64,000 bases of DNA from Malacoraja senta (taxonomy: Eukaryota). The notes beneath the pieces are model-generated. The model had not been told where the DNA came from and made no database searches. It saw nothing but the letters and a program-made list of their open reading frames with translations. This document shows positions 23,247-49,057 of this stretch, piece after piece. Where the stretch lies: positions 8,744,001 through 8,808,000 of the forward strand of contig CM075994.1 of the NCBI GenBank assembly GCA_038087875.1. The letters run 5' to 3'. Position 1 is the stretch's first letter. Each line of letters begins with the position of its first letter. Both the position numbers and the translations under genes were made by a program.

Positions 23247-23253
23247 GTTTTTA

Positions 23254-23685
<432 letters not shown>

Positions 23686-23828
23686 TTACCATTGATGTAT
23701 AACCGCTTTTTAAAAGAAAACCCTTTGTAACGTGCAATGGAACGTCCAATTTTTCCTCTCCAGCTTCCAAAAGGAGGCGGCTGAAATTCCTCAAGCAAAC
23801 TACCTACACTGACCCCTGCAGGTTAGAG

Positions 23829-24537: not shown

Positions 24538-25003
24538 CTCAGCCACCAAGCACGACATCCGGAGGCTGCAGCGCATCGTCCGATCAGCTGAGAAGGCTGT
24601 TGGCTGCAACCTTCCCTCCATTGACGAACTGTACACTGCAAGGGCCAGGAAGCGAGCGGGTAAGATCATCTCTGACCCCTCTCACCCTGGCCACAAACTC
24701 TTTGAATCACTTCCCTCTGGAAGGCGACTCCGGACTGTCAAAGCTGCCACAGCTTGACATAAAAACAGCTTTTTTCCACAAGTAGTAGCTCTACTCAATA
24801 ACCAAAAATCTGTAGCCTCGTTTTGTTCTAGTATTATATTTAATTCACATGTTTAATCAATAATGTTTTATTATTAATGTTTAATGTTTTATGTGTCATT
24901 CCTAACTGTCACTGTATGTCGATGTCACTTGTGGGCGGAGCACCAAGGCAAATTCCTTGTATGTGAATACTTGGCCAAAAAACATATTCATTCATTCATT
25001 CAT
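24538..25003 (+). mobile_element. Rex1/Babar-type LINE 3' fragment nested in a SINE (related copy 27335-27695, minus)
   Basis: LQRIVRSAEK…DPSHPGHKLF..LPSGRR; (ATTC)n tail. Confidence 0.72.
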
Positions 25004-28000
25004 TGACTGTACATTCTCCATGACCAGTGTGGGTTTGCTCAGAGATCTCCGGTTTCCTCGCACACTCCAAAGGTGCACAGGTGTGTAGGTTAATTGGCTT
25101 AGTATAACTGTGAGGTCAAGGAAAGAGCGTTCACGTCACGGCTCTGTTTCCACCAATCTTTCCACCACCACGCACAAGAAGCGCAAGACGGACACCATTG
25201 TATGCAGATGCCGAGAAGTGTGTTCAGCTCTGGCTGAACAACTTCTAATCTTGTGTGTGGACTCGATAAGAAGTATCATTGTAAATTGTCCCCAGTGTGC
25301 AGGATAGTGCAAGTGTGCGGGGATCGCTGGTCGGCGTGGGCTCAGTGGGCCGAAGGGCCCCGTTTCTGCGCTGTATCTCTAAACGAAACTACGTGCAACT
25401 TGTTTCAGATGATTTTTTGTGCACCAGTGTACACATTGAGTAGATTACAGGCGACTAACACTGTTCGCTCGGTACATTGCAACAAGAAACGCAGCAAGCA
25501 GGTCATCAATTGAAACCAGTTAAAACGTCCGAAAATGGATATCACTTTCTGATCAAGTGCCAGAACTCAGCTGAAGCAGTATTTGTGGAAAAAGTAACCA
25601 TGAAAAAGAAACGTGATAGTAGCAGAATTAGGCCGTTCGGCCCATAACGTCTACTCCACCATTCAATCATGGCTGATCTATCTCTCCCTCCTAAACTCAT
25701 TCTCCTGCCTTCTACCCATAACCCAGAGCTTCTGTTTTGTCAGAGCATTTCAGTATTCTAGTACCTGAAAATCAGTATTTTGCTGAGGAAATCAGTATTT
25801 TTACATGGTGCCATTTTGCTGAAAAAAATGTTATTATTTATGTGCGGTCATACCCATGTACGAGTGCAAGAATGCATAACCTTGCTACTAATTGACATGT
25901 CTTCTACGCACCTTACTTCACCGTGCATTCATTTCCATCTCTTTGTATACTGCTGATTGAATGGCTGTTTTCTGCTTTTAGCACCAGATGATGATGATGT
26001 AGAAGCCATTTTGGAAGCCTCCCTCTCACTCACTCGCTCCCTCTTTCCTCTCTTCCCCCCTCCCTCCATTCGTCTCTCCACCCCCCCCTCCCTCTTTCTC
26101 TCTTCCTTCCTTTTTTTCTCCCTCCCTCTTATTCCCTCCCTCCCTTCCTCATTCATTCTCCCGCTCTCCATCCCCCTCTCTCTCCTTCTCCCTCCTGTCT
26201 CCATCCTCTCCCTCTCTTCCTTTCACCCCCTTGAGCCCACCCACCGTTCTGTAAAATCAAGGCCAATCCCAATGTAACTGCAATCTCACTGGTAACCTTT
26301 CACCACTAGGCTTATCCAGAATTCTACCACTGCCTAAAAAATAATCAAAGGCTCAACTTCCACTGAGAAAGAGAATTCCAAAGACCCATTGTTATACGAG
26401 AATTTTCCTGAACAGTCTGTGACCCATAGCGCTTTGTTTAAAGCCCATAGCGCTCCAACCAGTAGTAATATATTTATAACCCACAGCGCTTCGTTTAAAT
26501 TTGCGTTAAACAGAACGTGTTAAACTTACAGCGGGACAGGCAGCAACTGTGGAGAGAAGGAATGGGTGGCGTTTCTGGTCAAGACCTGCTTCAGACTGAA
26601 CTGAACTCCGTATTTAAGATCCGTATTTAACAACACAAAATCGTACATCAGCATTCTAATCGCATTTCCGCACAAAATAGGGAATATCCGTACTACTTGG
26701 CAGCTCTGCATAACCTGACAACCATACTAATCAAGAATTTATCTATCTCTGCCTTAAATATATCTAAGGCCTTCTGTGGTTGAGAATTCCACAGATTCAC
26801 CACTCTCTGACTAAAGAAATTCATCCTCATCTCCTTCCTAAACCAGTTAACATTTCACATCAAGAACTGGAAGAAACATAGAAAATAGGTGCAGGAGTAG
26901 GCCATTTGGCCATTCGAGCCAATATGATCATGGCTGATCATCCACAATCAGTACCCTGTTCCCGCCTTCTCCCAATATCCCTCAAATCTGTTAGCCCTTA
27001 AGAGCTATATCTAACCCTCTCTTGAATACATCCAATGAATTGGCCTCCACTGCCTTCTGTGACAGAGAATTCCACAGATTCACAACTCTCTGGCTGAAAA
27101 TATCTTTCCTCATCTCAGTCCCAAATGGCCTACCCCTTATTCTTAAACTGTGGCCCCTGGTTCTGGATTCCCCCAACATGGGGAACATTCTTCCTGCAAC
27201 TAGCCTGTCCAATCCCTTAACAATTTTATATGTTTCCGTAAGATTCCCTCTCAATCTTCTAAATTCCAGTGAATACAAGCCCATTCTTTCATCATATGTC
27301 AGTCCCGCCATCCCGGGAATTAACCTGGTGAACCTAAGTTAGTAAGTATGTAAGTTTATTGGCCAAGTATTCACATACAAGGAATTTGCCTTGGTGCTCC
27401 GCCCACAAATAACAACATGACATAGTGACAGTTACGAAAACACTAAACATTAATAATAATAAAAGATTAATGATAAAACACCATTGATCAAGCATGTGAA
27501 CCAATAAAATACCAGAACAAAGGGAGGCTACAGATTTTTGGCTGTTGAGTAGAGCAACTACTCGTGGATAAAAATGATTTTTATGTCTGGCTGTGGCAGC
27601 TTTGACAGTCCGAAGTCGCCTTCCAGAGGGAAGTGATTCAATGAGTTTGTGGCCAGGGTGAGAAGGGTCAGAGATGATCTTACCCACTCGCTTCCTAACG
27701 TACGCTGCACTCCCTCAATAGCAAGAATGTCCTTGCTCAAATTAGGAGACGAAAAATGCACACAATTTGCAGGTGTGGTCTCACCAGGGCCCTGTACAAC
27801 TGCAGTAGGACCTCCTTGCTCCTATACTCAAATCCTCTCGCGATGAAGGCCAACCTGCCATTAGCTTTGAGGGTAGACAAAAATGCTGGGGAAACTCAGC
27901 GGGTGAGGCAGCATCTATGGAGCGAAGGAAATAGGCAACGTTTCGGGTCGAGACCCTTCTTCAGACTTACATTAATTTTGAGGGAATGAGGGATGATTTA

Positions 28001-28343
28001 CAGTTTTTTTTGCTCTCCATCAGAGAATTCACACAGCTACGTATCAAGTCTTTCCCATTTGAGACATCACCTATCTAGGGCAACCTGCTGACAACATGCC
28101 ACGTTGGAAGCAGGTCTCAGAGAAGCGTTCTTTATTGCAATCAGCCAGAAGAGTCTATTTATAAGCAAACAGCCTCTTACTGACGGCAGTAAACTGAAGC
28201 CTTGACTGAGGTCACTGCACCATATTCAGATAAAAGTGGGGCAATTTCACCTGAAGATCCAATGTATGCATTATATCTATTAGATAGAAATTGCACCGGC
28301 CTTGATAGAAATTGCACATATAAAATGACCTGTAAAATAAATA

Positions 28344-28649
28344 CTCCCCCGTTGGATTGCAACCTTGTCGTGGTCGGGGAGCTGGTGTGTCTCAGTGACC
28401 CCTGGAGCTATGCCAGCGGGAGATTTGTCTCCTGTTAGGGTCTCCCATGCTGGACAGGTCGAAGGGTAGAGGCTAGACGAAGAGCTATCCTCCACTGGTC
28501 CTCCAGGTTGGAGGTTGAGCACAGGGCTAACAACCCTGTCTCGTAAAACAAATATGTTATGGAAACAGCAACTGAAGGAATCAACACTACTGAGTGGAGG
28601 ACCTTCGTTGCTGCCCTACATGCCAGGAGGCATAATAGGCAGTAAGTAA
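28344..28649 (+). mobile_element. Non-autonomous bipartite RTE-derived element
   Basis: RTE-like 5' UTR, (AGTA)n tail, 12-bp TSD gtaaaataaata. Confidence 0.65.
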
Positions 28650-28734
28650 GTAAAATAAATAGCGAGTTAGGGGAATTATCCAACTACGTGCACACAGGAT
28701 AGTACTCGAGATTAAAATCGAGATGTAAATGAGT

Positions 28735-29027
28735 GTGGGCTGTGGAGTCCTGGGAGAGCCTTGCAGCTGACCGCACGAGGTGGAGAGGTACCCTGAACCA
28801 ACGTCTCAAAACGGGGGAAGAGAAACTGTTGAACGCAGCAGCAGAAAGGAGTGCAGCAACTTCAACAGACCAGAGACCACACACAAATGTGACCTTTGCC
28901 ACAGAGACTGTCACTCCCGCATTGGTCTCTTCAGCCACAAGGGACGCTGCTCCAGCCGGGGTTTGGAGCAAGCAGCCAACTACTAGGATGCATCACCCAT
29001 GGTCAGCTATGACCGAGGGGGCCTACA
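28735..29027 (+). mobile_element. RTE-clade LINE 3' end
   Basis: WESLAADRTRWR and CDLCHRDCHSRIGLFSH zinc-finger-like terminus. Confidence 0.75.
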
Positions 29028-29582
29028 AATGGGCTGTGTTACTGGGGACACTTGCTATCTTATACTTAAACCCAAAACTAAACTTAACAGAAGTTTCTCC
29101 GGGCACATCGAGGGGGCAGCGGTGGAGGTTGATACGATAGCTGCATTTAAGAGGCATGCGGGGTATGGAGGGAAATGGACTCAGTGCAGACAGATAGGAG
29201 TTGAGCTGAAAGGGTTCAGAGAAGATTTACAAGGATGTTGCCAGGACTAGAGGGTGTGAGCTGTAGGGAGAGTTTGAGTAGGCTGGGTCTCTATTCCTTG
29301 GAGCGCAGGAGGTTGAGGGGTGCTCTTATAGAGGTGTACAAAATCATGAGAGGAATAGATCGGGTAGATGCACAGAGTCTCTTGCCCAGAGTAGGGGAAT
29401 CGAGGACCAGAGGACATAGGTTCAAGGTGAAGGGGAAAAGATTTAATAGGAATCTGAGGGGTAACGTTTTCACACAGAGGGTGGTGGGTGCATGGAACGA
29501 GCTGCCAGAGGAGGTAGTTGAGGCTGGGACTATCCCATCGTTTAAGAAACAATTGGACAGGTACATGGATACGACAGGGATA

Positions 29583-30090
29583 CTAGACCAAGTAGGACCC
29601 TTTCGCACGGGAGGCCTGGTCCCCCAACGCAATATTCGACCACTCACCCATAGCCCCCACCGGAGGCCTGGTCCCCCAATGCAACAGCGTTCCCCAACAC
29701 AATATTCCACCACTCACCCGTTCCCCCAACGCAATCTGCTCCCCCAACGCAATATTCCACCACTCACACCGTTCCCCCAACGCAATATTCCACCACGCAC
29801 GCATAGCCCACAATTGTGCAGAGCGGCTCATTTCCCCTTATTCACCCTCCCTCAATTTAAAAAAAAAAAAGCGATTGCACTCCAAGTGCCACCCGTTGGG
29901 TCCCTGTCACACGGGAGGACTGGTCCCTCAATTCAACCCGTTCCTCAACGCAATATTCCACCACTGACACATTCCCCCAACGCAATATTCCACCACGCAC
30001 CGATAGCTCCTAACTGTGCAGGGGGCTGCTCATTCCCCCTTATTCACCCTCCCTCATTTTAACTTTAATAAAAATGCAATTGCACTTGCT
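29583..30090 (-). repeat. Helitron-end-like sequence with cccccaacgcaatattccacc minisatellite (duplicate ~42949-43454)
   Basis: ctagaccaagt end shared with the Helitron; repeated ~32-bp units. Confidence 0.5.
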
Positions 30091-30908
30091 AGGGCTGCCA
30101 GGACTAGCGGGCAGGGGATATGGATCAAACGGATATGGCAGGTGGGACAAGTGTGGCTGGGACATGTTGGCCGGTGTGGGCAAAGTGGGCCAAAGGGCCT
30201 GTTACCACACTGGATCACTCTATGACTCCATGCATCTTCTATGTTCGTCAGATGCAACCATCCACACTGCGGTTCAAAGAGCTCTCAATGTGTTGTACTG
30301 GTCCACCACCAATTGTGCAGCAACTGGTGGTCTGACATCTCCTTTAACACGGACAAAATGCCGAGTGCACGAAAATGTGCCTCCTAGGCCGGGCAAGGCG
30401 GACGATCTCGACCTCATCGGGATTTCCGCGCCGATCGGCATGTTGTATTTGCCGCCTGCAGCCGAGGCTCTGGAACCCCAGCCCGGCCGGAGCTGGAAGA
30501 TCCCTTCCCATAGCCGACTTTGCGGGCCAGAATCTCAGCCCCTTGGCAGACTGTTCCAGCTACCGTCGGGACTCCTCTCAGAGGACGCGTCCACAAGTTG
30601 GTCTGACAGAACGGATAATCCAGAAGAAAGGCTCTGGAAGCAAAGATGCCGGGGAAGAGTGAAAAGCGTACTTCAAAAATAAATATTCCAGCGCCATTCT
30701 TTGGAAAGCGAACTGAAACCGTCACACACATGACCAAATGGCATCACAGAAAGTAATAGTAAGAGATTCATCTGACTCATTGCCATTTTCCAACCTACAG
30801 AACTATAACGCATGTCTGCTAAAGACATGAACATTCAAGCAGAATTTGCGAGATAAAACCGAGTTATGAGAAAAATGCTTCCGGGTGAGATCACACACGT
30901 GACCAGTC

Positions 30909-31640
30909 ATAGACAATAGGTGCAGGAGTAGGCCATTCGGCCCTTCGAGCCAGCACCGCCATTCACTGTGATCATGGCTGATCATCCACAATCAGTACCC
31001 CGTTCCTGCCTTTTCCCCATATCCCCTGACTCCGCTACATTTAAGAGCCCCATCCAGCTCTTTTGAAAGCATCCAGAGAACCAGACTCACAACTCTCTGT
31101 GAGAAAAAGTGTTTCCTCACCTCCGTTCTAAATGGCTTACCCCAATTCTTAAACTGTGGCTGCTGGTTCTGGACTCCCCCAACATCGGGAACACGTTTCC
31201 TGCCTCTAGCGTGTCCAAACCCTTAACAATCTTATGTTTCAATAAGATACCCTCTCATCCTTCTAAACTCCAAGTGTACAAGCCCAGCCGTTCCATTCTC
31301 TTAGCGTATGACAGTCCCGCCATCCCGGGAATTAACCTTGTAAACCTACGCTGCACTCCCTCAATAGCAAGAATATCCTTCCTCAAATTAGGGGACCAAA
31401 ACTGCACACAATACTCCAGGTGTGGTCTCACTAGGACTCTGTACAACTGCAGAAGGACCTCTTTGCTCCTATGCTCGACTCCTCTTGTTATAAAGTCCAA
31501 CATGCCATTCGCCTTCTTCACTGCCTGCTGTACCTGCATGCTTACTTTCATAGACTGATGAACAAGGACCCCCAGATCACGTTGTACTTCCCCTTTTCCC
31601 AACGTCGCCATTTAGATAGTAATCTGCCTTCCTGTTTTTG
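30909..31640 (-). mobile_element. CR1 LINE 3' fragment (duplicate ~44273-45005)
   Basis: [19 protein letters not shown] motif. Confidence 0.88.
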
Positions 31641-32153
31641 CTACCAAAGTGGCTTTGACATCGGGAGAAGAATGGAGAGCAGGGGAGAGACAAGACTTTG
31701 CCTTCCATCACAGTGAGGAGGAGATTCACTGTGATGGATGTTTGTGTGAACTGTGTTGGTTGTATGTCTTGTTAATTGTTTCTTTTTGTTGTATGACTGC
31801 AGAAACCAAATTTCGTTGAACTTCATTTGAGGTTCAAATGACAATGAATTAAATTGTAATTGTAACCTCACATTTATCTGCCCATTAAACTTCATCTGCC
31901 AATGCATCTGCCCACTCCCCCAACCTGTCCAAGTCACCCTGCATTCTCACAGCACCCTCCTCACAGTTCACACTGCCACCCAGTAAATTTCCCTAAAATT
32001 ACCCGAAGGCAACCAGAATTTCCCAAATTTCGGGTAACTTCCTTCAAAGTGGAAACACTGAAGAGATGTATTCCACAATTTTTTTCATATTTTTGGCCAC
32101 GCACGTGACCAAGAATTGGGGGCCATCACCGACGACTCAATCACAAGGCTTAC

Positions 32154-32326
32154 CTGCTGCTGCCTTTGAAACCTGGGCGGCAACGACTTCTGGTACTTGG
32201 AGTAACCCTGCGAAGTCTGCGGCGGCCTCCCCTGCACTATCACCTCTACTTTTGACTCGACTCTTGCCACCCCCGTCTCCTCTTTCACTTCAACCGTCTC
32301 CTTTTCAGGAGGAGGTGGAGGTTCAG
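32154..32326 (-). CDS. PRRC2A: PRRC2A KYQKSLPPRF exon, left duplicate copy
   Basis: Same sequence as 45519-45691; one copy is probably an assembly artefact. Confidence 0.8.
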
Positions 32327-33484
32327 CTGGAGAGAAACAAAAAAAAGATTCAATAAATAGAGTCATCTGCATTTAATCGAACCTCCCGTGCTTATCATTT
32401 CCAGTCTAACCAGGCAAGTCCCCAAGTTGACGTGCAAGTTTTGCACATTGACGTGACTGCACAGGTGGGGGGGGGGGGGGGGGGGGGGGGGGAAAGGAAC
32501 TGCAGATGCTGGTTTAAACCGTAGACACAAAACCGAAGATAGACATAATGATAAGGCTGAATGATGTTTAATATAAATATGTATTAAATATCATTCAGCC
32601 TTACCATTCCCTCCTTTAAAAAAAAAATCAGTTTTGATAACAATTACAGTGCTTGCCGAGTACATAAGAAAGACCATAAACCTCTCAACAGACAAATTAA
32701 TAGTACAACTAGTAATACAATCAATCCATAGTGGACAATAGTTCCCTAAGACGTTCCAAACATATTAAAAGGCCACCAACGTCTGATAAGGCTGAATGAT
32801 ATTTAATATATACTAGACCAAGTGCAGACCCGTTGGGTCTGTTTCCCCAACGCGCGTTTGCAGAGGGGGGCTGAGGCGTCGCACTAACCATCCCTCGTTG
32901 GGTCTGTTCCTCCAAAGCACGGTGCGGGGTGGGAATCTGGCACCTACAAACACACACACTCATCACACCCCCTTGATATTATCTTAATTATATTAATTGG
33001 CTTCTTTTATCCCATCTCCACCCTATCCACTGACGAATAGCCCTCACCTCTCAGGTGCGTCTAGAGGGGGGGGGGGGCAGAGAGAGTGTGCACAGACAGA
33101 GTGGAAGAGAGAGAGAGAGGGCAGAGAAAAAGATAAAGATCAAAGAGAGAGAGCAGAGAGGGGGTAGAGGGGGAAGAGTGTGGATGGAGGGGGAAGAGTG
33201 GGGAGGGAAGGTGGGTGGGGGAGGGAAGGTGGTGCGGGAGAGAGGGAAGGGGTGGGGGAGGGAAGGAGGGAGAGGGAAGGGGGTGGTGGAGAGAGGGATG
33301 GGGTGGGAGGAGGAGGGGGAGGAGAGGGAGAGGGTGAGGAAAGAGGGATGGCGAGAGAGGGATGGGGTAGAGGTGTGGGGGAGGGGGGGAGAGGTGTGGG
33401 GGAGGGAGGGAGATGGGGTAGGTGAGGGAGGGGAAGAATGTGGAGGGAGGGGGGAGAGGTGTGGGGGGGAGAGAGGGGAAATAG

Positions 33485-33684: not shown

Positions 33685-36520
33685 CAGATTTTACACATGG
33701 ACCTGTTCATTTTCAATAATAAATGAATAATGTGTTACATAGAAACATAGAAAACAGGTGCAGGAGGCCATTCGGCCCTTCGAGCCAGCACCGCCATTCA
33801 TTGTGATCATGGCTGATCGTCCTCAATCAATAACCCGTGCCTGTCTTCTCCCCATCTCCCTTGATTCCACTAGCCCCTAGAGCTCTATCTAACTCCCTCT
33901 TAAATCCATCCAGTGATTTGGCCTCCACTGCCCTCTGTAGCAGGGAATTTCACAAATTCACAACTCTGGGTGAAAACGTTTTTTCTCACCTCAGTCTTAA
34001 ATTACCTCCCCTTTATTCTAAGACTGTGGCCCCTGGTTCTGGACTCGCCCAACATTGGGAACATTTTTCCTGCATCTAGCTTGTCCAGTCCTTTTATAAT
34101 TTTATACGTTTCTATAAGATCCCCTGACTGAAAAAAATATATTGAAGGTTCCTTTAACTCATTTTCTCTCTGAATTTTATCACTGTCAATTTCCACAATA
34201 ATAATGTTGCTACCTTTAAAGAAAAAGAGTAACTCAGCAGGTCAGAGCTTCCCTGGAGAACATTACGTATAAACATAGAAAATAGGTGCAGGAGTAGGCC
34301 ATTCGGCCCTTCGAGCCTGCACCACCATTCAATATGATCATGGCTGATCATCCAACTCAGTATCCCATACCTGCATTCTCTCCATACCCCCTGATCCCCT
34401 TACCCACAAGGGCCACATCTAACTCCCTCTTAAATATAGCCAATGAACTGGCCTCAACTACCTTCTGTGGCAGAGAATTCCACAGATTCACCACTCTCTG
34501 TGTGAAAAATGTTTTTCTCATCTCGGTTCTAAAAGACTTCCCCCTTATCCTTAAACTGTGACCCCTTGTTCTGGACTTCCCCAACATTGGGAACAATCTT
34601 CCTGCATCTAGCATGTCCCAACCCCTTAAGAATTTTGTAAGTTTCTATAAGATCCCCCCTCAATCTTCTAAATTCTAGCGAGTACAAGCCGAGTCTATCC
34701 AGTCTAACATTGTTAAGTCACGTTTCAGGACGGAAGCCTACTGACAAGTCCCGACCCAAAATGTCATCTATCCATCTTCTCCAGAGATGTTGCCTGACCT
34801 ACTGAGTTATTCCAGCACTTGGAGTCTTTTATTCATAATCAAGGTGGTTGTTTGTTTTTACATGTTGCTCCCCATCCCCTTTTGTTACTAAAGCAGGCTA
34901 TTCTGGCAAATGGACTTAAACTGGAACTCATTGCCACAGAAGGCTGTGGAGGCCAAGTCACTGGATAATTTTAAGACAGAGATAGATAAGATTCTTGTTT
35001 AAAAAAGAACTGCAGATGCTGGAAAAATTGAAGGTAGACAAAAATGCTGGAGAGATTCAGCGGGTGAGGCAGCATCAATAGAGGGAAGGAATAGGTGACG
35101 TTTTGGGTCGAGACCCCTCTTCAGACTGACGAGGAGGTGGGGGGTGGGGGGGGGGGCGGCTGGAAGAAGAAAGGAAGAGGAGGAGACACTGGGCTGTGGG
35201 AGAGCTGGGAAGGGGAAGGGAAGGAGGGAGAAAGCAAGGACTACCTGAAATTGGAGAAGTCAATGATCATACCGCTGGGGTGTAAACTGCCCAAGCGAAA
35301 TATGAGGTGCTGCTCCTCCAATTTGCGGTGGGATTCACTCTGGCCATGCAGGAGGCCCAGGACAGAAAGGTCGGATTGGGAATGGGAAGGGGAGTTGAAG
35401 TGTTGAGCCACCGGGAGATCAGGTTGGTTAGTGCGAACCGACCGGAGGTGTTGGGTGAAGCGATCGCCAAGCCTGCGCTTGGTCTCACCGATGTAGAGCA
35501 GCTGATACCTGGAGCAGCGAATGCAATAGATGAGGCTGGAGGAGGTGCAGGTGAACCTCTGCCTCACCTAGAAAGACTGCTTGGGTCCTTGGATGGAGTC
35601 AAGGTGGCAGGTAAAGCGACAAGTGTAGCGTTTCCTGCGGTTGCGAGGGAAAGTACCGGGGGGGGGGGGGTGGTGGTTTGGGTGGGAAGGGACGAATTAA
35701 CCAGGGAATTACGGAGGGAGCGGTCTCTGTGGAACGCCGAAAAGGGGAGGAGATGGCAAGATGTGATAAGATTCTTGGTTATTACGGTGTCAGGGGTTAT
35801 GGGGAGAAGGCAGGATTGTCAGATTGAGAGGGAAAGATAGATCAGCCATGATTGAATGGCAGAGTAGACACGATGGACGAAAAATCAGAATTTTTACCAA
35901 GCCAATTAACCTACACGCCTTGATTAGTCAGGGTGTCAGCGGTAATGGGGAGAAGGCAGGATAGTGGGATTGAGAGGGAAAGATAGATCAGCCATGATTG
36001 AACGGCGGAGTAGACTTGATGGAACAAATGGCCTAATTCTGCTCCTATGACTGGTGGACTGATAGAGTCCTGCACTTGTTAAAGGTAGAGGGGAGCGAGT
36101 GTTTTTTTTTACCAAAGATCCTATAGCGGAGCAAGATAGACCACTCCTGCTAAATGCAATGGGCTGACGCGTAGTACGCAACGGAGCGGAACGCGGGCCT
36201 TTTTTTCATCCATTTCAGTAACCGACCCGACTTTGGGTATCCCTCTCGCAGTGTAATCAACGTTGTGTGGGGGGGGGGACAGTTTGTGTTAATAAATTAA
36301 AATTCTGAAAATGAGAAGATTTTTACCAAAGAACTTTGATTTTTACCAGGATGTTTCCCGTAACCGGCTTCCGTCTCCGCACTAGTATCTTTGGTGCGGA
36401 GACGGAAGCCGGTTACGGAAATGGGGCCGAAAATTACTCATGAATCTGCCCATGACCGTGCTACATCTTTTTCGTCGAGTTGTCTATCTTGCTCGCTATA
36501 TATAGGATCTTTGGTTTTTA

Positions 36521-36952
<432 letters not shown>

Positions 36953-39900
36953 TTACCATTGATGTATAACCGCTTTTTAAAAGAAAACCCTTTGTAACGT
37001 GCAATGGAACGTCCAATTTTTCCTCTCCAGCTTCCAAAAGGAGGCGGCTGAAATTCCTCAAGCAAACTACCTACACTGACCCCTGCAGGTTAGAGCAGGG
37101 GTGGGGAACCTTTTCATGGTGGAAGGCTGCATTAAGTTAGCTGTGATCTAATAAGGCCTCATCCTAGAAACTTCAATTAGATATACTTCAAAATGTACAT
37201 TATCTTGTTAAAATAGCCCTCATGACTTACTAATGTTTTAATTGTGGCCGTCAGTCGGGGAGGATTATTTTGTTGAATCGTCTTTTACTCTTTGGTATTT
37301 TAAATACTTTCATTTTAAGATTAAAATAAAAATAATAAAAGATGAACAAAAACATATTAATAATAATAAAAAGATTTGTTCTCCAAAATTTGGATTCATT
37401 CAAAAGGCCGCACTTAATGGCTTAGAAGGCCGCATGTGGCCGTTAGGCCGCAGGTTCCCCACCCCTGGGTTAGAATCTTAGTTTAGTTCAGAGATGCAGC
37501 GTGGAAATAGGCCCTACAGCCCACCGAGTAAACCGAAGATCTCTTGAAGAAAACCCACACAGGTCACGGGGAGAACGTAAAACTCCGTACAGACAGGCAT
37601 CCATAGTCAGGATCGAACCAGGGTCTCTGGCACTGTGAGGCAGTAGCTCGACCGCTGTGCGACCAAGTTGTCCAATTGAATAAAAGTATTCCTCCGTCGC
37701 TACCCTCTGCCTCCTGTCACCAAGCCAGTTTTAGAGGCGGTATGGTGGCGCAGCGGTCTTACAGCGCCAGAGAACTGGGTTCGATCCTGACAACGGGTGC
37801 TTGTCTCAGCCACCAAGCACGACATCCGGAGGCTGCAGCGCATCGTCCGATCAGCTGAGAAGGCTGTTGGCTGCAACCTTCCCTCCATTGACGAACTGTA
37901 CACTGCAAGGGCCAGGAAGCGAGCGGGTAAGATCATCTCTGACCCCTCTCACCCTGGCCACAAACTCTTTGAATCACTTCCCTCTGGAAGGCGACTCCGG
38001 ACTGTCAAAGCTGCCACAGCTTGACATAAAAACAGCTTTTTTCCACAAGTAGTAGCTCTACTCAATAACCAAAAATCTGTAGCCTCGTTTTGTTCTAGTA
38101 TTATATTTAATTCACATGTTTAATCAATAATGTTTTATTATTAATGTTTAATGTTTTATGTGTCATTCCTAACTGTCACTGTATGTCGATGTCACTTGTG
38201 GGCGGAGCACCAAGGCAAATTCCTTGTATGTGAATACTTGGCCAAAAAACATATTCATTCATTCATTCATTGACTGTACATTCTCCATGACCAGTGTGGG
38301 TTTGCTCAGAGATCTCCGGTTTCCTCGCACACTCCAAAGGTGCACAGGTGTGTAGGTTAATTGGCTTAGTATAACTGTGAGGTCAAGGAAAGAGCGTTCA
38401 CGTCACGGCTCTGTTTCCACCAATCTTTCCACCACCACGCACAAGAAGCGCAAGACGGACACCATTGTATGCAGATGCCGAGAAGTGTGTTCAGCTCTGG
38501 CTGAACAACTTCTAATCTTGTGTGTGGACTCGATAAGAAGTATCATTGTAAATTGTCCCCAGTGTGCAGGATAGTGCAAGTGTGCGGGGATCGCTGGTCG
38601 GCGTGGGCTCAGTGGGCCGAAGGGCCCCGTTTCTGCGCTGTATCTCTAAACGAAACTACGTGCAACTTGTTTCAGATGATTTTTTGTGCACCAGTGTACA
38701 CATTGAGTAGATTACAGGCGACTAACACTGTTCGCTCGGTACATTGCAACAAGAAACGCAGCAAGCAGGTCATCAAATTGAAACCAGTTAAAACGTCCGA
38801 AAATGGATATCACTTTCTGATCAAGTGCCAGAACTCAGCTGAAGCAGTATTTGTGGAAAAAGTAACCATGAAAAAGAAACGTGATAGTAGCAGAATTAGG
38901 CCGTTCGGCCCATAACGTCTACTCCACCATTCAATCATGGCTGATCTATCTCTCCCTCCTAAACTCATTCTCCTGCCTTCTCCCCATAACCCAGAGCTTC
39001 TGTTTTGTCAGAGCATTTCAGTATTCTAGTACCTGAAAATCAGTATTTTGCTGAGGAAATCAGTATTTTTACATGGTGCCATTTTGCTGAAAAAAATGTT
39101 ATTATTTATGTGCGGTCATACCCATGTACGAGTGCAAGAATGCATAACCTTGCTACTAATTGACATGTCTTCTACGCACCTTACTTCACCGTGCATTCAT
39201 TTCCATCTCTTTGTATACTGCTGATTGAATGGCTGTTTTCTGCTTTTAGCACCAGATGATGATGATGTAGAAGCCATTTTGGAAGCCTCCCTCTCACTCA
39301 CTCGCTCCCTCTTTCCTCTCTTCCCCCCTCCCTCCATTCGTCTCTCCACCCCCCCCTCCCTCTTTCTCTCTTCCTTCCTTTTTTCTCCCTCCCTCTTATT
39401 CCCTCCTCCCTTCCTCATTCATTCTCCCGCTCTCCATCCCCTTTCTCCTTCTCCCTCCTGTCTCCATCCTCTCCCTCTCTTCCTTTCTCCCCCTTGAGCC
39501 CACCCACCGTTCTGTAAAATCAAGGCCAATCCCAATGTAACTGCAATCTCACTGGTAACCTTTCACCACTAGGCTTATCCAGAATTCTACACTGCCTAAA
39601 AAATAATCAAAGGCTCAACTTCCACTGAGAAAGAGAATTCCAAAGACCCATTGTTATACGAGAATTTTCCTGAACAGTCCCGTGACCCATAGCGCTTTGT
39701 TTAAAGCCCATAGCGGCTCCAACCAGTAGTAATATATTTATAACCCACAGCGCTTCGTTTAAATTTGCGTTAAACAGAACGTGTTAAACTTACAGCGGAC
39801 AGGCAGCAACTGGGGAGAGAAGGAATGGGTGGCGTTTCTGGTCAAGACCCTGCTTCAGACTGAACTGAACTCCGTATTTAAGATCCGTATTTAACAACAC

Positions 39901-42900
39901 AAAATCGTACATCAGCATTCTAATCGCATTTCCGCACAAAATAGGGAATATCCGTACTACTTGGCAGCTCTGCATAACCTGACAACCATACTAATCAAGA
40001 ATTTATCTATCTCTGCCTTAAATATATCTAAGGCCTTCTGTGGTTGAGAATTCCACAGATTCACCACTCTCTGACTAAAGAAATTCATCCTCATCTCCTT
40101 CCTAAACCAGTTAACATTTCACATCATGAACTGGAAGAAACATAGAAATAGGTGCAGGAGTAGGCCATTTGGCCATTCGAGCCAGCACCGCCATTCAATA
40201 TGATCATGGCTGATCATCCACAATCAGTACCCTGTTCCCGCCTTCTCCCAATATCCCTCAAATCTGTTAGCCCTAAGAGCTATATCTAACCCTCTCTTGA
40301 ATACATCCAATGAATTGGCCTCCACTGCCTTCTGTGACAGAGAATTCCACAGATTCACAACTCTCTGGCTGAAAATATCTTTCCTCATCTCAGTCCCAAA
40401 TGGCCTACCCCTTATTCTTAAACTGTGGCCCCTGGTTCTGGATTCCCCCAACATGGGGGAACATTCTTCCTGCAACTAGCCTGTCCAATCCCTTAACAAT
40501 TTTATATGTTTCCGTAAGATTCCCTCTCAATCTTCTAAATTCCAGTGAATACAAGCCCATTCTTTCATCATATGTCAGTCCCGCCATCCCGGGAATTAAC
40601 CTGGTGAACCTAAGTTAGTAAGTATGTAAGTTTATTGGCCAAGTATTCACATACAAGGAATTTGCCTTGGTGCTCCGCCCACAAATAACAACATGACATA
40701 GTGACAGTTACGAAAACACTAAACATTAATAATAATAAAAGATTAATGATAAAACACCATTGATCAAGCATGTGAACCAATAAAATACCAGAACAAAGGG
40801 AGGCTACAGATTTTTGGCTGTTGAGTAGAGCAACTACTCGTGGATAAAAATGATTTTTATGTCTGGCTGTGGCAGCTTTGACAGTCCGAAGTCGCCTTCC
40901 AGAGGGAAGTGATTCAATGAGTTTGTGGCCAGGGTGAGAAGGGTCAGAGATGATCTTACCCACTCGCTTCCTAACGTACGCTGCACTCCCTCAATAGCAA
41001 GAATGTCCTTGCTCAAATTAGGAGACGAAAAATGCACACAATTTGCAGGTGTGGTCTCACCAGGGCCCTGTACAACTGCAGTAGGACCTCCTTGCTCCTA
41101 TACTCAAATCCTCTCGCGATGAAGGCCAACCTGCCATTAGCTTTGAGGGTAGACAAAAATGCTGGGGAAACTCAGCGGGTGAGGCAGCATCTATGGAGCG
41201 AAGGAAATAGGCAACGTTTCGGGTCGAGACCCTTCTTCAGACTTACATTAATTTTGAGGGAATGAGGGGATGATTTACAGTTTTTTTTGCTCTCCATCAG
41301 AGAATTCACACAGCTACGTATCAAGTCTTTCCCATTTGAGACATCACCTATCTAGGGCAACCTGCTGACAACATGCCACGTTGGAAGCAGGTCTCAGAGA
41401 AGCGTTCTTTATTGCAATCAGCCAGAAGAGTCTATTTATAAGCAAACAGCCTCTTACTGACGGCAGTAAACTGAAGCCTTGACTGAGGTCACTGCACCAT
41501 ATTCAGATAAAAGTGGGGCAATTTCACCTGAAGATCCAATGTATGCATTATATCTATTAGATAGAAATTGCACCGGCCTTGATAGAAATTGCACATATAA
41601 AATGACCTGTAAAATAAATACTCCCCCGTTGGATTGCAACCTTGTCGTGGTCGGGGAGCTGGTGTGTCTCAGTGACCCCTGGAGCTATGCCAGCGGGAGA
41701 TTTGTCTCCTGTTAGGGTCTCCCATGCTGGACAGGTCGAAGGGTAGAGGCTAGACGAAGAGCTATCCTCCACTGGTCCTCCAGGTTGGAGGTTGAGCACA
41801 GGGCTAACAACCCTGTCTCGTAAAACAAATATGTTATGGAAACAGCAACTGAAGGAATCAACACTACTGAGTGGAGGACCTTCGTTGCTGCCCTACATGC
41901 CAGGAGGCATAATAGGCAGTAAGTAAGTAAAATAAATAGCGAGTTAGGGGAATTATCCAACTACGTGCACACAGGATAGTACTCGAGATTAAAATCGAGA
42001 TGTAAATGAGTGTGGGCTGTGGAGTCCTGGGAGAGCCTTGCAGCTGACCGCACGAGGTGGAGAGGTACCCTGAACCAACGTCTCAAAACGGGGGAAGAGA
42101 AACTGTTGAACGCAGCAGCAGAAAGGAGTGCAGCAACTTCAACAGACCAGAGACCACACACAAATGTGACCTTTGCCACAGAGACTGTCACTCCCGCATT
42201 GGTCTCTTCAGCCACAAGGGACGCTGCTCCAGCCGGGGTTTGGAGCAAGCAGCCAACTACTAGGATGCATCACCCATGGTCAGCTATGACCGAGGGGGGC
42301 CTACAAATGGGCTGTGTTACTGGGGACACTTGCTATCTTATACTTAAACCCAAAACTAAACTTAACAGAAGTTTCTCCGGGCACATCGAGGGGGCAGCGG
42401 TGGAGGTTGATACGATAGCTGCATTTAAGAGGCATGCGGGGTATGGAGGGAAATGGACTCAGTGCAGACAGATAGGAGTTGAGCTGAAAGGGTTCAGAGA
42501 AGATTTACAAGGATGTTGCCAGGACTAGAGGGTGTGAGCTGTAGGGAGAGTTTGAGTAGGCTGGGTCTCTATTCCTTGGAGCGCAGGAGGTTGAGGGGTG
42601 CTCTTATAGAGGTGTACAAAATCATGAGAGGAATAGATCGGGTAGATGCACAGAGTCTCTTGCCCAGAGTAGGGGAATCGAGGACCAGAGGACATAGGTT
42701 CAAGGTGAAGGGGAAAAGATTTAATAGGAATCTGAGGGGTAACGTTTTCACACAGAGGGTGGTGGGTGCATGGAACGAGCTGCCAGAGGTGGTAGTTGAG
42801 GCTGGATCTATCGCACCGTTTAAGAGGCAGTTGGACAGGTACATGGATAGGACAGGTATGGAGGGTATGGAGGGTTGAGGTAGTTGAGGCTGGGACTATC

Positions 42901-45518
42901 CCATCGTTTAAGAAACAATTGGACAGGTACATGGATACGACAGGGATACTAGACCAAGTAGGACCCTTTCGCACGGGAGGCCTGGTCCCCCAACGCAATA
43001 TTCGACCACTCACCCATAGCCCCCACCGGAGGCCTGGTCCCCCAATGCAACAGCGTTCCCCAACACAATATTCCACCACTCACCCGTTCCCCCAACGCAA
43101 TCTGCTCCCCCAACGCAATATTCCACCACTCACCCGTTCCCCCAACGCAATATTCCACCACGCACGCATAGCCCACAATTGTGCAGAGCGGCTCATTTCC
43201 CCTTATTCACCCTCCCTCAATTTAAAAAAAAAAAGCGATTGCACTCCAAGTGCCACCCGTTGGGTCCCTGTCACACGGGAGGACTGGTCCCTCAATTCAA
43301 CCCGTTCCTCAACGCAATATTCCACCACTGACACATTCCCCCAACGCAATATTCCACCACGCACCGATAGCTCCTAACTGTGCAGGGGGCTGCTCATTCC
43401 CCCTTATTCACCCTCCCTCATTTTAACTTTAATAAAAATGCAATTGCACTTGCTAGGGCTGCCAGGACTAGCGGGCAGGGGATATGGATCAAACGGATAT
43501 GGCAGGTGGGACAAGTGTGGCTGGGACATGTTGGCCGGTGTGGGCAAAGTGGGCCAAAGGGCCTGTTACCACACTGGATCACTCTATGACTCCATGCATC
43601 TTCTATGTTCGTCAGATGCAACCATCCACACTGCGGTTCAAAGAGCTCTCAATGTGTTGTACTGGTCCACCACCAATTGTGCAGCAACTGGTGGTCTGAC
43701 ATCTCCTTTAACACGGACAAAATGCCGAGTGCACGAAAATGTGCCTCCTAGGCCGGGCAAGGCGGACGATCTCGACCTCATCGGGATTTCCGCGCCGATC
43801 GGCATGTTGTATTTGCCGCCTGCAGCCGAGGCTCTGGAACCCCAGCCCGGCCGGAGCTGGAAGATCCCTTCCCATAGCCGACTTTGCGGGCCAGAATCTC
43901 AGCCCCTTGGCAGACTGTTCCAGCTACCGTCGGGACTCCTCTCAGAGGACGCGTCCACAAGTTGGTCTGACAGAACGGATAATCCAGAAGAAAGGCTCTG
44001 GAAGCAAAGATGCCGGGGAAGAGTGAAAAGCGTACTTCAAAAATAAATATTCCAGCGCCATTCTTTGGAAAGCGAACTGAAACCGTCACACACATGACCA
44101 AATGGCATCACAGAAAGTAATAGTAAGAGATTCATCTGACTCATTGCCATTTTCCAACCTACAGAACTATAACGCATGTCTGCTAAAGACATGAACATTC
44201 AAGCAGAATTTGCGAGATAAAACCGAGTTATGAGAAAAATGCTTCCGGGTGAGATCACACACGTGACCAGTCATAGACAATAGGTGCAGGAGTAGGCCAT
44301 TCGGCCCTTCGAGCCAGCACCGCCATTCACTGTGATCATGGCTGATCATCCACAATCAGTACCCCGTTCCTGCCTTTTCCCCATATCCCCTGACTCCGCT
44401 ACATTTAAGAGCCCCATCCAGCTCTTTTGAAAGCATCCAGAGAACCAGACTCACAACTCTCTGTGAGAAAAAGTGTTTCCTCACCTCCGTTCTAAATGGC
44501 TTACCCCCAATTCTTAAACTGTGGCTGCTGGTTCTGGACTCCCCCAACATCGGGAACACGTTTCCTGCCTCTAGCGTGTCCAAACCCTTAACAATCTTAT
44601 GTTTCAATAAGATACCCTCTCATCCTTCTAAACTCCAAGTGTACAAGCCCAGCCGTTCCATTCTCTTAGCGTATGACAGTCCCGCCATCCCGGGAATTAA
44701 CCTTGTAAACCTACGCTGCACTCCCTCAATAGCAAGAATATCCTTCCTCAAATTAGGGGACCAAAACTGCACACAATACTCCAGGTGTGGTCTCACTAGG
44801 ACTCTGTACAACTGCAGAAGGACCTCTTTGCTCCTATGCTCGACTCCTCTTGTTATAAAGTCCAACATGCCATTCGCCTTCTTCACTGCCTGCTGTACCT
44901 GCATGCTTACTTTCATAGACTGATGAACAAGGACCCCCAGATCACGTTGTACTTCCCCTTTTCCCAACGTCGCCATTTAGATAGTAATCTGCCTTCCTGT
45001 TTTTGCTACCAAAGTGGCTTTGACATCGGGAGAAGAATGGAGAGCAGGGGAGAGACAAGACTTTGCCTTCCATCACAGTGAGGAGGAGATTCACTGTGAT
45101 GGATGTTTGTGTGAACTGTGTTGGTTGTATGTCTTGTTAATTGTTTCTTTTTGTTGTATGACTGCAGAAACCAAATTTCGTTTGAACTTCATTTGAGGTT
45201 CAAATGACAATGAATTAAATTGTAATTGTAACCTCACATTTATCTGCCCATTAAACTTCATCTGCCAATGCATCTGCCCACTCCCCCAACCTGTCCAAGT
45301 CACCCTGCATTCTCACAGCACCCTCCTCACAGTTCACACTGCCACCCAGTAAATTTCCCTAAAATTACCCGAAGGCAACCAGAATTTCCCAAATTTCGGG
45401 TAACTTCCTTCAAAGTGGAAACACTGAAGAGATGTATTCCACAATTTTTTCATATTTTTGGCCACGCACGTGACCAAGAATTGGGGGCCATCACCGACGA
45501 CTCAATCACAAGGCTTAC

Positions 45519-45691
45519 CTGCTGCTGCCTTTGAAACCTGGGCGGCAACGACTTCTGGTACTTGGAGTAACCCTGCGAAGTCTGCGGCGGCCTCCCCTGC
45601 ACTATCACCTCTACTTTTGACTCGACTCTTGCCACCCCCGTCTCCTCTTTCACTTCAACCGTCTCCTTTTCAGGAGGAGGTGGAGGTTCAG
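45519..45691 (-). CDS. PRRC2A: PRRC2A coding exon (EPPPPPEK…GYSKYQKSLPPRFQRQQQ), right copy
   Basis: KYQKSLPPRFQRQQQ hallmark; tctccag acceptor, GTAAGC donor; 173 nt, phase 1 to 0. Confidence 0.93.
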
Positions 45692-46174
45692 CTGGAGAGA
45701 AACAAAAAAAAGATTCAATAAATAGAGTCATCTGCATTTAATCGAACCTCCCGTGCTTATCATTTCCAGTCTAACCAGGCAAGTCCCCAAGTTGACGTGC
45801 AAGTTTTGCACATTGACGTGACTGCACAGGTGGGGGGGGGGGGGGGGGGGGGGAAAGGAACTGCAGATGCTGGTTTAAACCGTAGACACAAAACCGAAGA
45901 TAGACATAATGATAAGGCTGAATGATGTTTAATATAAATATGTATTAAATATCATTCAGCCTTACCATTCCCTCCTTTAAAAAAAAAAATCAGTTTTGAT
46001 AACAATTACAGTGCTTGCCGAGTACATAAGAAAGACCATAAACCTCTCAACAGACAAATTAATAGTACAACTAGTAATACAATCAATCCATAGTGGACAA
46101 TAGTTCCCTAAGACGTTCCAAACATATTAAAAGGCCACCAACGTCTGATAAGGCTGAATGATATTTAATATATA

Positions 46175-47336
46175 CTAGACCAAGTGCAGACCCGTTGGGT
46201 CTGTTTCCCCAACGCGCGTTTGCAGAGGGGGGCTGAGGCGTCGCACTAACCATCCCTCGTTGGGTCTGTTCCTCCAAAGCACGGTTGCGGGGTGGGAATC
46301 TGGCACCTACAAACACACACACTCATCACACCCCTTGATATTATCTTAATTATATTAATTGGCTTCTTTTATCCCATCTCCACCCTATCCACTGACGAAT
46401 AGCCCTCACCTCTCAGGTGCGTCTAGAGGGGGGGGGCAGAGAGAGTGTGCACAGACAGAGTGAAGAGAGAGAGAGAGGGCAGAGAAAAAGATAAAGATCA
46501 AAGAGAGAGAGCAGAGAGGGGGTAGAGGGGGAAGAGTGTGGATGGAGGGGGAAGAGTGGGGAGGGAAGGTGGGTGGGGGAGGGAAGGTGGTGCGGGAGAG
46601 AGGGAAGGGGTGGGGGAGGGAAGGAGGGAGAGGAAGGGGGTGGTGGAGAGAGGGATGGGGTGGGGAGGAGGAGGGGAGAGGGAGAGGGGAGGGATGGGGG
46701 GGAGGTAGAGGTGTGGGGGAGGGGGGAGAGGTGTGGGGGAGGGAGGGAGATGGGGTAGGTGAGGGAGGGGAAGAATGTGGAGGGAGGGGGAGAGGTGTGG
46801 GGGGAGAGAGGGGAAATAGTGGGAGGGAGAGTGGAAGGGGTAGGGACAGTCCATCTGTTCCCCTTTCCCTATCACCCCCAATCCTCTTTCTCTATTCCCA
46901 CAAACGTGATGACGCGCTTTGACACAGGCTGCGGGGGTGGGGGGGAGGGGCAGGGGCATATGTAAATGGATCCATTCCCATTGGACATCTGTGAGCATTG
47001 GGCATTGTGACATCACACGATTGAACGTTCACCAACATTCTATGGGTGAGAGCTGTTTTTTTTAAAAAACATTTTGAAATTTGGGGGGGGGGGGCGGGGG
47101 GGGGGGAAGAGAAGGATTTGATTTAAAATGTGTACATAAACACGACAACATTTAATCAGGAGTGGATACTTGGAATGAAAAGTGAAATCTCTACCGAAAT
47201 GGAAAAATCTCGGCGTTTCTGCGTGTGGTGTTGGCGTAGCAAGGAATCAAAGGAAGGCTGGCATCCACAAGACAGGCAGAAACACAGCCAGAAACACACA
47301 CACACACAGAGTTTTAAATATAGATAGATAGATAGA
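46175..47336 (-). mobile_element. Non-autonomous Helitron (truncated duplicate from ~32813 to the gap)
   Basis: 5' TC-TAT start, 3' CTAG|T end, subterminal hairpin cagaccc-gtt-gggtctg (46187-46203). Confidence 0.7.
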
Positions 47337-47370: not shown

Positions 47371-47660
47371 GGGCGGTCACGGTGGCACAGCGGTTGCTAC
47401 CTTACAGCGAATGCAGCGCCAGAGACCTGGGTTCCATCCCGACTACGGGTGCTGTCTGTACGGAGTTTACACCTTCTCCCCGTGACCTGTGTGGGTTTTC
47501 TCCGAGATCTTCGGTTTCCTCCCACACTCCAAAGACGTACAGGTTTGTAGGTCAATTGGTAAATGTAAAAAATTGTCCCTAGTGGATGTAGGATAATGTT
47601 AATGTGCGGGGATCGCTGGTCGGCACGGACCTGGTGGGCCGTATCTCTATACTAACCTAA
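47371..47660 (+). mobile_element. tRNA-derived HE1/V-SINE; other copies ~5892-6110(-), 11945-12232(-), 12322-12605(+), 18605-18920(-), 24210-24395(-), 24466-25390(+, interrupted), 53200-53340(-)
   Basis: A box GGTGGCACAGCGG, B-box-like GGTTCCATCC, V-SINE core ggtttcctcccaca. Confidence 0.85.
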
Positions 47661-48122
47661 AATGGAGTTATCAGCGGGACAGGCAGCATCTCTGGATAGA
47701 AGGAATGGGTGATGTTTCGGGTCGAGACCCTTCTTCAGACTGAAACGGTACCCATTTTCCTCTCCTGAGATGCTGCCTGTCCCGCTGAGTCACCCCAGCA
47801 TTTGGTGCCAACACACAGCGGAAGTACCTTCACTAGATTGACTGCTTCAGTTAGAGGAGATCCGTCGTCATTAGGGATGAGCACTAAATACCAGAGGTAG
47901 ACAAAAAATGCTGGAGAAAACTCAGCGGGTGAGGCAGCATCAATGCAGCGAAGGAATAGGTGAAATTTCGGGTCATGACCCTTCAGAAGAAGAAGAGACC
48001 CTTACTCGCTGGAGTTTAGAAGGTTGAGGTACAGAGGTAGAACATGAACAGCCATGTTGTTGGTGCATGGTACGATCCATACTGTATATTTCATCCTACT
48101 TTCCCTTTGCTGTTGTTTTCAG

Positions 48123-48243
48123 TACCGATGCATCGACATCTCAGCAGCCGGAATCGCAGCAGCCGCCGGCTTCACAGACGTCTGGCTCCAGTCAGCCGAA
48201 ACGTCCAGTAGCAGCAACAGCAGTGGTAGTAACACCACAGGAG
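48123..48243 (+). pseudogene. PRRC2A: Inverted copy of an N-terminal (BAT2_N region) PRRC2A exon: TDASTSQQPESQQPPASQTSGSSQPKRPVAATAVVVTPQE
   Basis: Matches mammalian PRRC2A [28 protein letters not shown]; intact ttttcag acceptor and GTATGA donor, but on the strand opposite to the gene. Confidence 0.8.
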
Positions 48244-49057
48244 GTATGACTCGACGTAGCTTGCAAAGAAATCCGGGTGGGCCCGTAATTCACTTTGCTT
48301 AATCTTTCTGTTTGTAATACAAAATGTAGCTGGCCTTTTCTTTAAGAAAAAAAGAGCTTTCATTCCAGCTTTGCGAGGTAGATAAAAATGCTGGAGAAAC
48401 TCAGCGGGCGAGGCAGCATCTATGGAGCAAAGGAATAGGTGACGTTTCGGGTCGAGACCCTTCTTGAGACCTCCTCTCTCACGGACCCCTCTTTAACAAC
48501 CTCCTCTCACTGCCCCCCCCCCTGTGATTTCCCCTTCCCTCGATCTCTACGGCCACATCTTAACCCAGAAACAAAAACCTATTTCCTTCGCTCCATAGAT
48601 GCTGCCTCACCCGCTGAGTTTCTCCTGCATTTTTGTCTACCTTCGATTTTTCCAGCATCTGCAGTTCTTTCTTAAACTAAATACCAGAGGTTGGTTGAAC
48701 GGGTGGACTGAAGGTGTAGATAACGGTAATGCTTGCTAACAATGTGTAGATCACAGCAGTCTGTTAAACTGGCGTTGCACGCCATTTGGAAACACTCCAA
48801 CTGATCAATGCCAATCTAACTGGGCAGTTGAGGACAATTATAAGCGCCAGGTTGGTGGCTGAACATACTAATTTTTAAAGTGCGTGAATGCAGTACACGA
48901 ACTGTTGCCCTGCCTAATGCAGCAAATGCATCATTTCCTGAAGGCAGCTACTGTGCGCGGGTGCTGCAGGGTCATCTCGATGGGTGATATGTGGACATGA
49001 TTATTTGCCAGGCCTGCCACAGGGCACAAAGCAGAGAATCACTTGTGCACCCACTTT

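Follow-up and report, generated by a model that had tools for sequence, protein, structure and literature searches.

An inverted local copy of PRRC2A exon 3, probably homogenized by gene conversion, lies inside a target-site-duplicated Penelope fold-back insertion in Malacoraja senta

The window analysed here is a stretch of 64,000 nucleotides of the Malacoraja senta genome (C18:8744001-8808000; all C18 coordinates below refer to the same contig). The host gene is PRRC2A, which is carried on the minus strand; its large exon in the window was closest to sawfish PRRC2A (81%) among the matches listed in the protein search, and no PRRC2A closer than that of the sawfish was present among the 120 matches listed in each of the longer and shorter searches. 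Genes on the plus strand near the insertion described below were judged from the long open reading frames listed. Sawfish residues 98 to 138 matched twice, once at C18:8835408-8835530 on the minus strand, in exon order, and once at positions 48121 to 48243 of the window on the plus strand. The second match sits in the intron that follows the eleventh coding match, between the exons for approximately residues 457 to 575 and 576 to 637 of the sawfish protein. The initial annotation had described this plus-strand copy as a 121-nt exon with intact splice dinucleotides, facing away from the gene and downstream of its proper place, and had called for a native copy upstream. All of this was borne out, since AG precedes position 48123 and GT follows position 48243 and since an identical native exon of 121 nt (C18:8835408-8835528, minus strand), encoding TDASTSQQPESQQPPASQT...PQE, was found 43,165 nt away; the copy is inverted with respect to it and retains intron sequence on both sides. 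The native exon is flanked by introns of 7.8 and 1.2 kb and runs from phase 2 to phase 0, because the exon before it breaks off after the second letter of a codon and exon 3 ends on a codon. Both exon copies (window positions 48159 to 48161 and the native equivalent) encode ESQQPP where the six cartilaginous-fish homologues compared have ESQLP. The sole other BAT2_N locus matched in the genome, at G000:C11:20614245-20615027, is a PRRC2 paralogue.

The exon copy is part of a 779-nt insert, here called the cassette, which is bracketed in the PRRC2A intron by an exact 16-nt direct repeat (Table 1). As the initial annotation had stated, the repeat is exact at both positions; moreover, the 16-mer occurred at just these two sites in 984 kb on both strands, and a chance pair within 1 kb is expected with a probability of about 3e-7. 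Strictly, the target-site duplication (TSD) measures between 10 and 16 nt, since two of its letters are also the last two of the element and four are also the first four of the inverted arm; it is 14 nt long if the element ends at 48677. The earlier proposal of Penelope ends on both sides, with a TSD of the size usual for the family, was supported.

Table 1. Features of the cassette (window positions)
Feature	Position	Strand	Evidence or remark
Left TSD	47883-47898	+	Exact repeat; last 4 nt in common with the inverted arm
Inverted Penelope pseudo-LTR arm, short end outward	47895-47984	-	Source copy not found
Junction filler, rich in AAG and repeating about 8 nt from the arm end	47985-48003		Sequence; absent from the donor
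Host intron copy, end of the CR1-like remnant, not homogenized	48004-48036	+	7/33 differ from native
Homogenized core: 86 nt of intron, exon, 103 nt of intron	48037-48346	+	Differs from native at 1 position
Copy of PRRC2A coding exon 3, 121 nt	48123-48243	+	Residues 98-138 of the sawfish protein; AG and GT dinucleotides preserved; phase 2 to 0; in antisense orientation relative to the gene
5' member of the donor insertion's 11-nt TSD pair, carried along	48362-48372	+	Donor's 3' TSD copy left behind
Copy of the donor fold-back Penelope insertion	48376-48677	+	Alignment to the donor
Fold-back sub-part: inverted arm	48376-48470		
Fold-back sub-part: ORF start, about 100 nt	48471-48576		
Fold-back sub-part: sense arm with tail	48577-48677		
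Right TSD	48676-48691	+	Exact repeat; first 2 nt in common with the element end

Most of the cassette was found to be one continuous copy of the native locus. A single 674-nt block (48004 to 48677) aligned in inverted orientation to C18:8834975-8835647 at 95% identity, and the sequence foreign to this donor consisted of the left arm and the 19-nt junction only. At the native site, the intron carries a fold-back Penelope insertion with an 11-nt TSD of its own, 132 nt downstream of the exon, and the copied block ends at the 3' tail of this fold-back, where the new TSD begins. The initial annotation had placed the repeat, the exon, and the Penelope ends correctly, but its reading of the CR1 scrap and the right fold-back as separate additions had to be given up, as both lie in the block copied from the donor. 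The CR1-like scrap continues upstream at the native site and so belongs to the host intron; a separate CR1 insertion was thereby ruled out. The inner junctions of the fold-back were full-length in 2 of 40 scored matches, namely, the cassette and its donor. Across the genome (1.94 Gb) the exon block had two matches, 43 kb apart, the donor being the only other copy, and a family of such cassettes was ruled out on this count. For the left arm no source in the same pre-mRNA was found among 468 other matches in 984 kb plus 32 loci, and none of the 468 carried more than two of its six rare letters. Folding of the left junction gave a z score of -1.0. By eye, the filler looks like the end, made of AAG repeats, of another short repeat found inside the insert at C18:8807550, and with about 7 repeated letters around it the filler possibly represents a tiny later insertion.

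On sequence criteria, the family that supplied the termini is a Penelope-like element (PLE). A 611-amino-acid frame at C12 matched RVT_1 (E = 5e-5) and GIY-YIG (E = 7e-4), both below the Pfam curated cut-offs, and contained the CX4CxxC linker; a GIY-YIG piece preceded the terminus in 6 of 18 loci, and the ORF start came after the tail. Partial tandems, an inverted 5' copy, and a tail of 30 to 40 nt, as expected of PLEs, were all present in the family, and an inverted arm began 17 of the 31 TSD-bounded inserts and is hence the usual 5' layout here. A search of positions 47600 to 48800 against Rfam returned no hammerhead, and its three matches were all of hairpin type and below the gathering score; what we presume to be a hammerhead-like core was recognized by eye in the donor and is altered in the cassette copy. 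Matches to the terminus stopped at about position 66 or 101, two points some 35 nt apart, which may be likened to the two start sites of reverse transcription described in the available text on a lizard element (PMC11167929). With the endonuclease-bearing PLEs of the Neptune type, as set out in the accessible parts of PMC8557442, the family has in common a reverse transcriptase with a C-terminal GIY-YIG domain, the CX4CxxC linker, pseudo-LTRs, an inverted truncated 5' copy, and a tail of 30 to 40 nt at one end. The family is probably of the Neptune type; the cassette differs from such elements in that it consists only of termini and about 100 nt from the beginning of the ORF. In the window, other tail-ended copies of Penelope had TSDs of 12 to 15 nt, so that the family-sized TSD proposed earlier was upheld with a range slightly wider than the 13 to 15 bp first given; over 1.78 Mb, scores of TSDs of 10 to 17 nt were recovered. 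About 19 tandem copies of a unit of 66 nt that stems from the Penelope terminus form an array in a PRRC2A intron (window-equivalent positions 64135 to 65435).

Differences between the copy and its donor were distributed very unevenly, with 7 in 33 positions on the left, 1 in 310 in the core around the exon, and 28 in 331 on the right. The contrast between the core (1/310) and the sequence outside it (35/364) was significant (Fisher P = 4e-9) and persisted when only the intron part of the core was counted (1/189; P = 5e-6). A clean run of 272 nt was reached in none of 200,000 shuffles, or in 74 of 200,000 when clustered changes were merged. The native intron was evidently not frozen, since its CR1-like scrap had changed at 3 of 31 positions at which the copy keeps the letter of the family (9 matches). 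Private changes in the Penelope part were found in donor and copy alike. At positions 48098, 48105, 48259, and 48333, the two loci of this genome have one letter in common that is absent from three other organisms represented by short-read contigs (organisms B, C, and D, described below); at 48098 and 48105, for instance, the contigs of organism B read C and T and both loci here read A and C. At 48333, roughly one quarter of the depth in one run, X1, still carried the other letter. At least 9 differences would be expected in the core without conversion, compared to the 1 observed (P of about 1e-3). Local identity far above that of the flanking duplicate, together with paralogues that have species-specific letters in common, is what ectopic gene conversion leaves behind, and the step from 1/310 to 35/364 points to the same process. 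We therefore regard gene conversion as the simplest cause of the core identity, with considerable confidence, and it is likely, as far as sequence comparison can tell, that conversion keeps the core identical to the original. Concerted evolution by conversion is well known from the inverted repeats of FLNA-EMD and F8 int22h; here the repeat is only 674 nt long and the unique core alone is homogenized.

To place the cassette in time, contigs from 4 of 24 listed short-read runs were compared, namely, X1, X2 (organism B), X4 (organism C), and X6 (organism D), using the differences and joints listed, beyond which lay 59 further differences and 2399 further joints. In X1 (share 0.70), which is possibly derived from the assembly's own sample, a 406-nt contig (47927 to 48332) spanned arm, junction, intron, and exon with 1 difference, at a depth of 51 compared to 27 on the flank, or about twice, and a flank contig ran into the tail with 0 differences and an overhang of 23 letters. 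A contig of X2 bridged the arm-to-intron junction (47966 to 48112) with 19 differences and no gaps, and X2 flank contigs reached 21 and 19 letters into the Penelope ends at the two TSDs. X6 ran 22 letters into the Penelope end at the right TSD, and its depth over the core was 44 versus 27. The overhangs at the TSD junctions (19 to 22 letters in the relatives, 23 in X1) fall below the bar of 31 letters, and the arm-to-intron junction is thus the sole one formally bridged. The right flank, which is single-copy in the genome, diverged from the window at 24 of 382 letters in organism B and at 27 of 385 in organism D (6 to 7%), a comparison that covers these two organisms, the contigs of organism C ending at 48768. 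Because contigs with flanks so diverged carry its junctions, the cassette is likely old and likely predates the split from organisms B and D, as judged from these contigs. The exon contig of organism B had a depth of 28, the single-copy level, which counts against this reading; two loci in that organism are suggested by the branching of its contigs. The donor Penelope insertion was also present in contigs of B, C, and D. No empty allele with a single TSD was seen among the joints listed, and the contigs of B and D ran into the Penelope ends.

We considered how host DNA could have come to lie between Penelope ends. In the reading that we favor, and to which we give roughly even chances, the cassette arose by DNA gap-filling from a nearby homologous donor. 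An ordinary fold-back Penelope element would first have inserted at 47883 to 47898, producing the TSD and the left arm. A break inside this hairpin-forming insertion, either at the time of insertion or later, would have allowed its sense arm to invade the homologous arm of the donor, and copying would then have proceeded through the donor insertion, intron, and exon until release and untidy joining to the left arm. This capture would predate the split from organisms B and D, and ectopic conversion between the inverted copies would subsequently have overwritten about 310 nt around the exon. Gap-filling is supported by the position of the donor, the only other copy in a genome of 1.94 Gb, at a distance of 43 kb; a bias toward cis is described as a signature of gap-filling capture in animals in the available text of PMC8277862. 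It is supported as well by the left arm, which has no donor counterpart, by the many nearby duplications of DNA (109 pieces of low copy number in 984 kb), and by the evident exchange of sequence between the native and cassette loci. Among those 109 pieces, only the PRRC2A cassette and its donor were tail-ended in both copies. Some observations count against gap-filling. The sense arm of the copy departs little from the family majority (1 private change in 101 nt), unlike the left arm (about 6 in 90; P = 0.05), a disparity not expected of the two arms of one old acceptor; no Penelope-only allele lacking the exon was seen, although one is predicted in some outgroup; and the exact end at a tail that is sense to the pre-mRNA is what reverse transcription predicts on both counts.

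The main competing explanation, less probable in our estimate and yet a serious one, is that a Penelope reverse transcriptase started at the donor tail in unspliced, chromatin-bound PRRC2A pre-mRNA, copied 674 nt in the 5' direction, and inserted the product into the same gene, the other strand being primed on a second Penelope RNA to yield the left arm and conversion following later. The copy stops precisely at the family tail without the donor's 3' TSD, the TSD is of a size typical of the family, and the tail is sense to the pre-mRNA. The enzyme of the lizard element starts cDNA within its own RNA, at two sites separated by roughly the length of a tail, and extends the two strands of the target, according to the available text of PMC11167929. 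As a precedent, the accessible parts of PMC3846280 and PMC6431247 describe rotifer host DNA that retains its introns, lies between pseudo-LTRs and within a TSD, and has an empty allele. However, strong cis targeting would be required, which the PLE literature consulted, as far as its available text goes, does not show. The lizard enzyme, which belongs to a different clade, needed about 55 nt beyond its start sites when tested in vitro (PMC11167929, available text), and the donor offers no such downstream RNA; no element sequence follows its tail, and 66 of the 101 nt of its sense arm fall in a predicted long hairpin. Orientation contributes a factor of just 2:1, as tails within PRRC2A are sense in 9 cases and antisense in 8; the co-orientation of exon and element 3' end noted in the initial annotation is real, but as a pointer to mechanism it amounts to a coin flip. 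That annotation had proposed that Penelope reverse transcriptase copied pre-mRNA or local DNA and reinserted it in cis. The native copy, the introns, and the inversion agree with this proposal, and we lean toward its DNA alternative, but the TSD, the precise stop, and the presence of introns fit either process, and the sequence does not tell the two apart cleanly.

To learn how often such capture occurs, fold-back insertions with a TSD were collected over 1.78 Mb, giving 48 cases (27 in 984 kb of C18, several of which are copies within segmental duplications, and 21 in 800 kb of C11). The presence of an inverted arm was required because a looser pass, in which 31 of 67 tail ends had a TSD, gave 13 of 67 false TSD matches in its control. 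Host DNA with a unique donor was found in 1 of the 48, the cassette from which the analysis started, and in 0 of the 21 in the unselected C11 stretch. Four further fold-backs held low-copy stretches, two of them short, one in a duplicated or repeat-like stretch, and one of 514 nt that by eye resembles a nested LINE end, and no unique local donor ending at a tail was found in any of these four. Penelope capture of host DNA is rare here. Three fold-back Penelope copies (C18:8826165, 8688913, and 8438163) have one common TSD, two of them lying in an inverted duplication and the third in a PRRC2A intron, and a second TSD is common to four others; such sharing could stem from a target preference or from transport within duplications or other repeats. 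A TSD-bounded Penelope insert of 1390 nt at C18:8866631-8868020 begins with 295 nt that had no other match in 984 kb, which may be either an unrepresented element body or another captured piece.

Among known systems, the cassette resembles the host DNA mobilized by PLEs in rotifers (PMC3846280, available text), in which intron-bearing host DNA likewise lies between pseudo-LTRs of mixed orientation, within a TSD and with little or no element coding sequence. The rotifer case comprises a whole gene module at a new site, for which the empty allele was found; the cassette comprises one exon, in a vertebrate, and has a homogenized core. Its donor is in its own right a Penelope insertion, its target belongs to the same gene, and the cassette has neither a spliced junction nor a poly(A) tract by which RNA could be told from DNA. 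Single-copy Pack-TIRs formed by transposition-independent gap-filling (PMC8277862, as far as accessible) also hold nearby host DNA in a TSD-bounded element with inverted ends and show a cis bias, and the cassette, too, is a single copy with its parent nearby on the same chromosome. Their container is a DNA transposon, however, whereas the ends of the cassette belong to a reverse transcriptase/GIY-YIG family, so that the cassette resembles Pack-TIRs in its working without being one of them. Furthermore, one cassette junction has about 100 nt of homology instead of microhomology, and the donor lies at 43 kb compared to the 15 kb within which 57% of Pack-TIR cases fall in that text. We see the cassette as a variant of known capture events, a real and likely old local duplicate of the exon that has Penelope ends and a core likely altered by conversion. 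In SVA and L1 5' transduction, upstream flank travels with the element; the cassette is alike in this, but shows no poly(A) or splicing. A literature search, conducted mostly at title level and with subscription papers outside its coverage, found no Penelope exon capture in a vertebrate, and the accessible text of a preprint on animal retrozymes (10.64898/2026.07.22.740005) contained no match for transduction.

Whatever its origin, the copy might be kept matching by selection, through pairing with exon 3 in the nascent transcript that leads to A-to-I editing, to skipping, or to circularization of the exons between, a possibility that we consider improbable. The identical tract is centered on the exon, a near-perfect duplex of 310 bp is possible on paper, the cassette seems to persist in three organisms, and in human genes long-range pairs have been associated with editing and with circular RNAs (PMC8052449, available text). 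Nevertheless, the partner is transcribed 43 kb later, by which time splicing of an exon between introns of 7.8 and 1.2 kb would probably be committed; skipping the 121-nt exon would shift the frame; conversion explains the identity without selection; and the donor insertion, presumably neutral, persists in the contigs of B, C, and D as well. Editing of the already spliced exon would be the most plausible effect, if there is any, and the cassette is likely without function. The combined version, in which Penelope reverse transcriptase copied nascent pre-mRNA into the same gene and the antisense exon, kept matching across ray and skate species, pairs over 43 kb and edits or regulates PRRC2A, seems very improbable; if true, it would describe a retro-made, self-updating cis-antisense regulator, and a regulatory role would be much more interesting. 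The suggestion that the cassette offers a route to exon shuffling was not supported, given an exon that runs from phase 2 to 0, lies antisense in an intron of its own gene, and represents 1 capture in 48 insertions; being frame-asymmetric, exon 3 is a poor unit for shuffling, and shuffling via the cassette is unlikely. Taken as a whole, an inverted local duplicate of exon 3 inside a TSD-bounded Penelope fold-back, made by gap-filling, converted in its core, and devoid of function, is an account to which we would give about even chances.

A recent capture of the exon core into an old Penelope insertion, with youth in place of conversion accounting for the 99.7% identity, is similarly hard to credit, since diverged sequence from the donor, with its TSD and its unique junctions, flanks the core left and right and since the arm-to-intron junction is present in organism B. 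Least probable of all is that the cassette, or its identity to the native exon, is an artefact of assembly or polishing, which flaws nearby (single-base frameshifts in two exons, and a near-identical 13.3-kb tandem duplicate that spans a gap and stops 1 kb from the cassette) might suggest, but which is largely ruled out by the contigs of X1 and by two TSD-bearing ends and private changes beyond what polishing can make; the misassembly named earlier as grounds for rejection is likewise countered by these contigs, and the native copy does exist upstream.

The cassette would represent a vertebrate host-exon capture bounded by Penelope ends in which the donor, the old TSD, and both junctions are still readable, so that retrotransposition in trans, as published for rotifers, can be cleanly tested against repair copying among closely packed repeats of the neighborhood. 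A further suggestion is that a pseudo-exon can be held identical to its parent by conversion long after it arose; dates drawn from identity would then be wrong for such copies, and reads derived from the exon align at two places.

Several features of the surrounding assembly were also recorded. The tandem duplicate (window positions 20418 to 33484 and 33685 to 46819; 99 to 100% identity) flanks a gap of 200 N and doubles two PRRC2A exons, and likely represents both haplotypes assembled in line. The frameshifts lie in C runs of two PRRC2A coding exons (C18:8843280-8843490 and 8825460-8825730) and are likely residual assembly errors. Several long, mostly inverted segmental duplications with 86 to 96% identity occur near PRRC2A, at 8.35 to 8.70, 8.94 to 8.98, and 9.07 to 9.14 Mb of C18.
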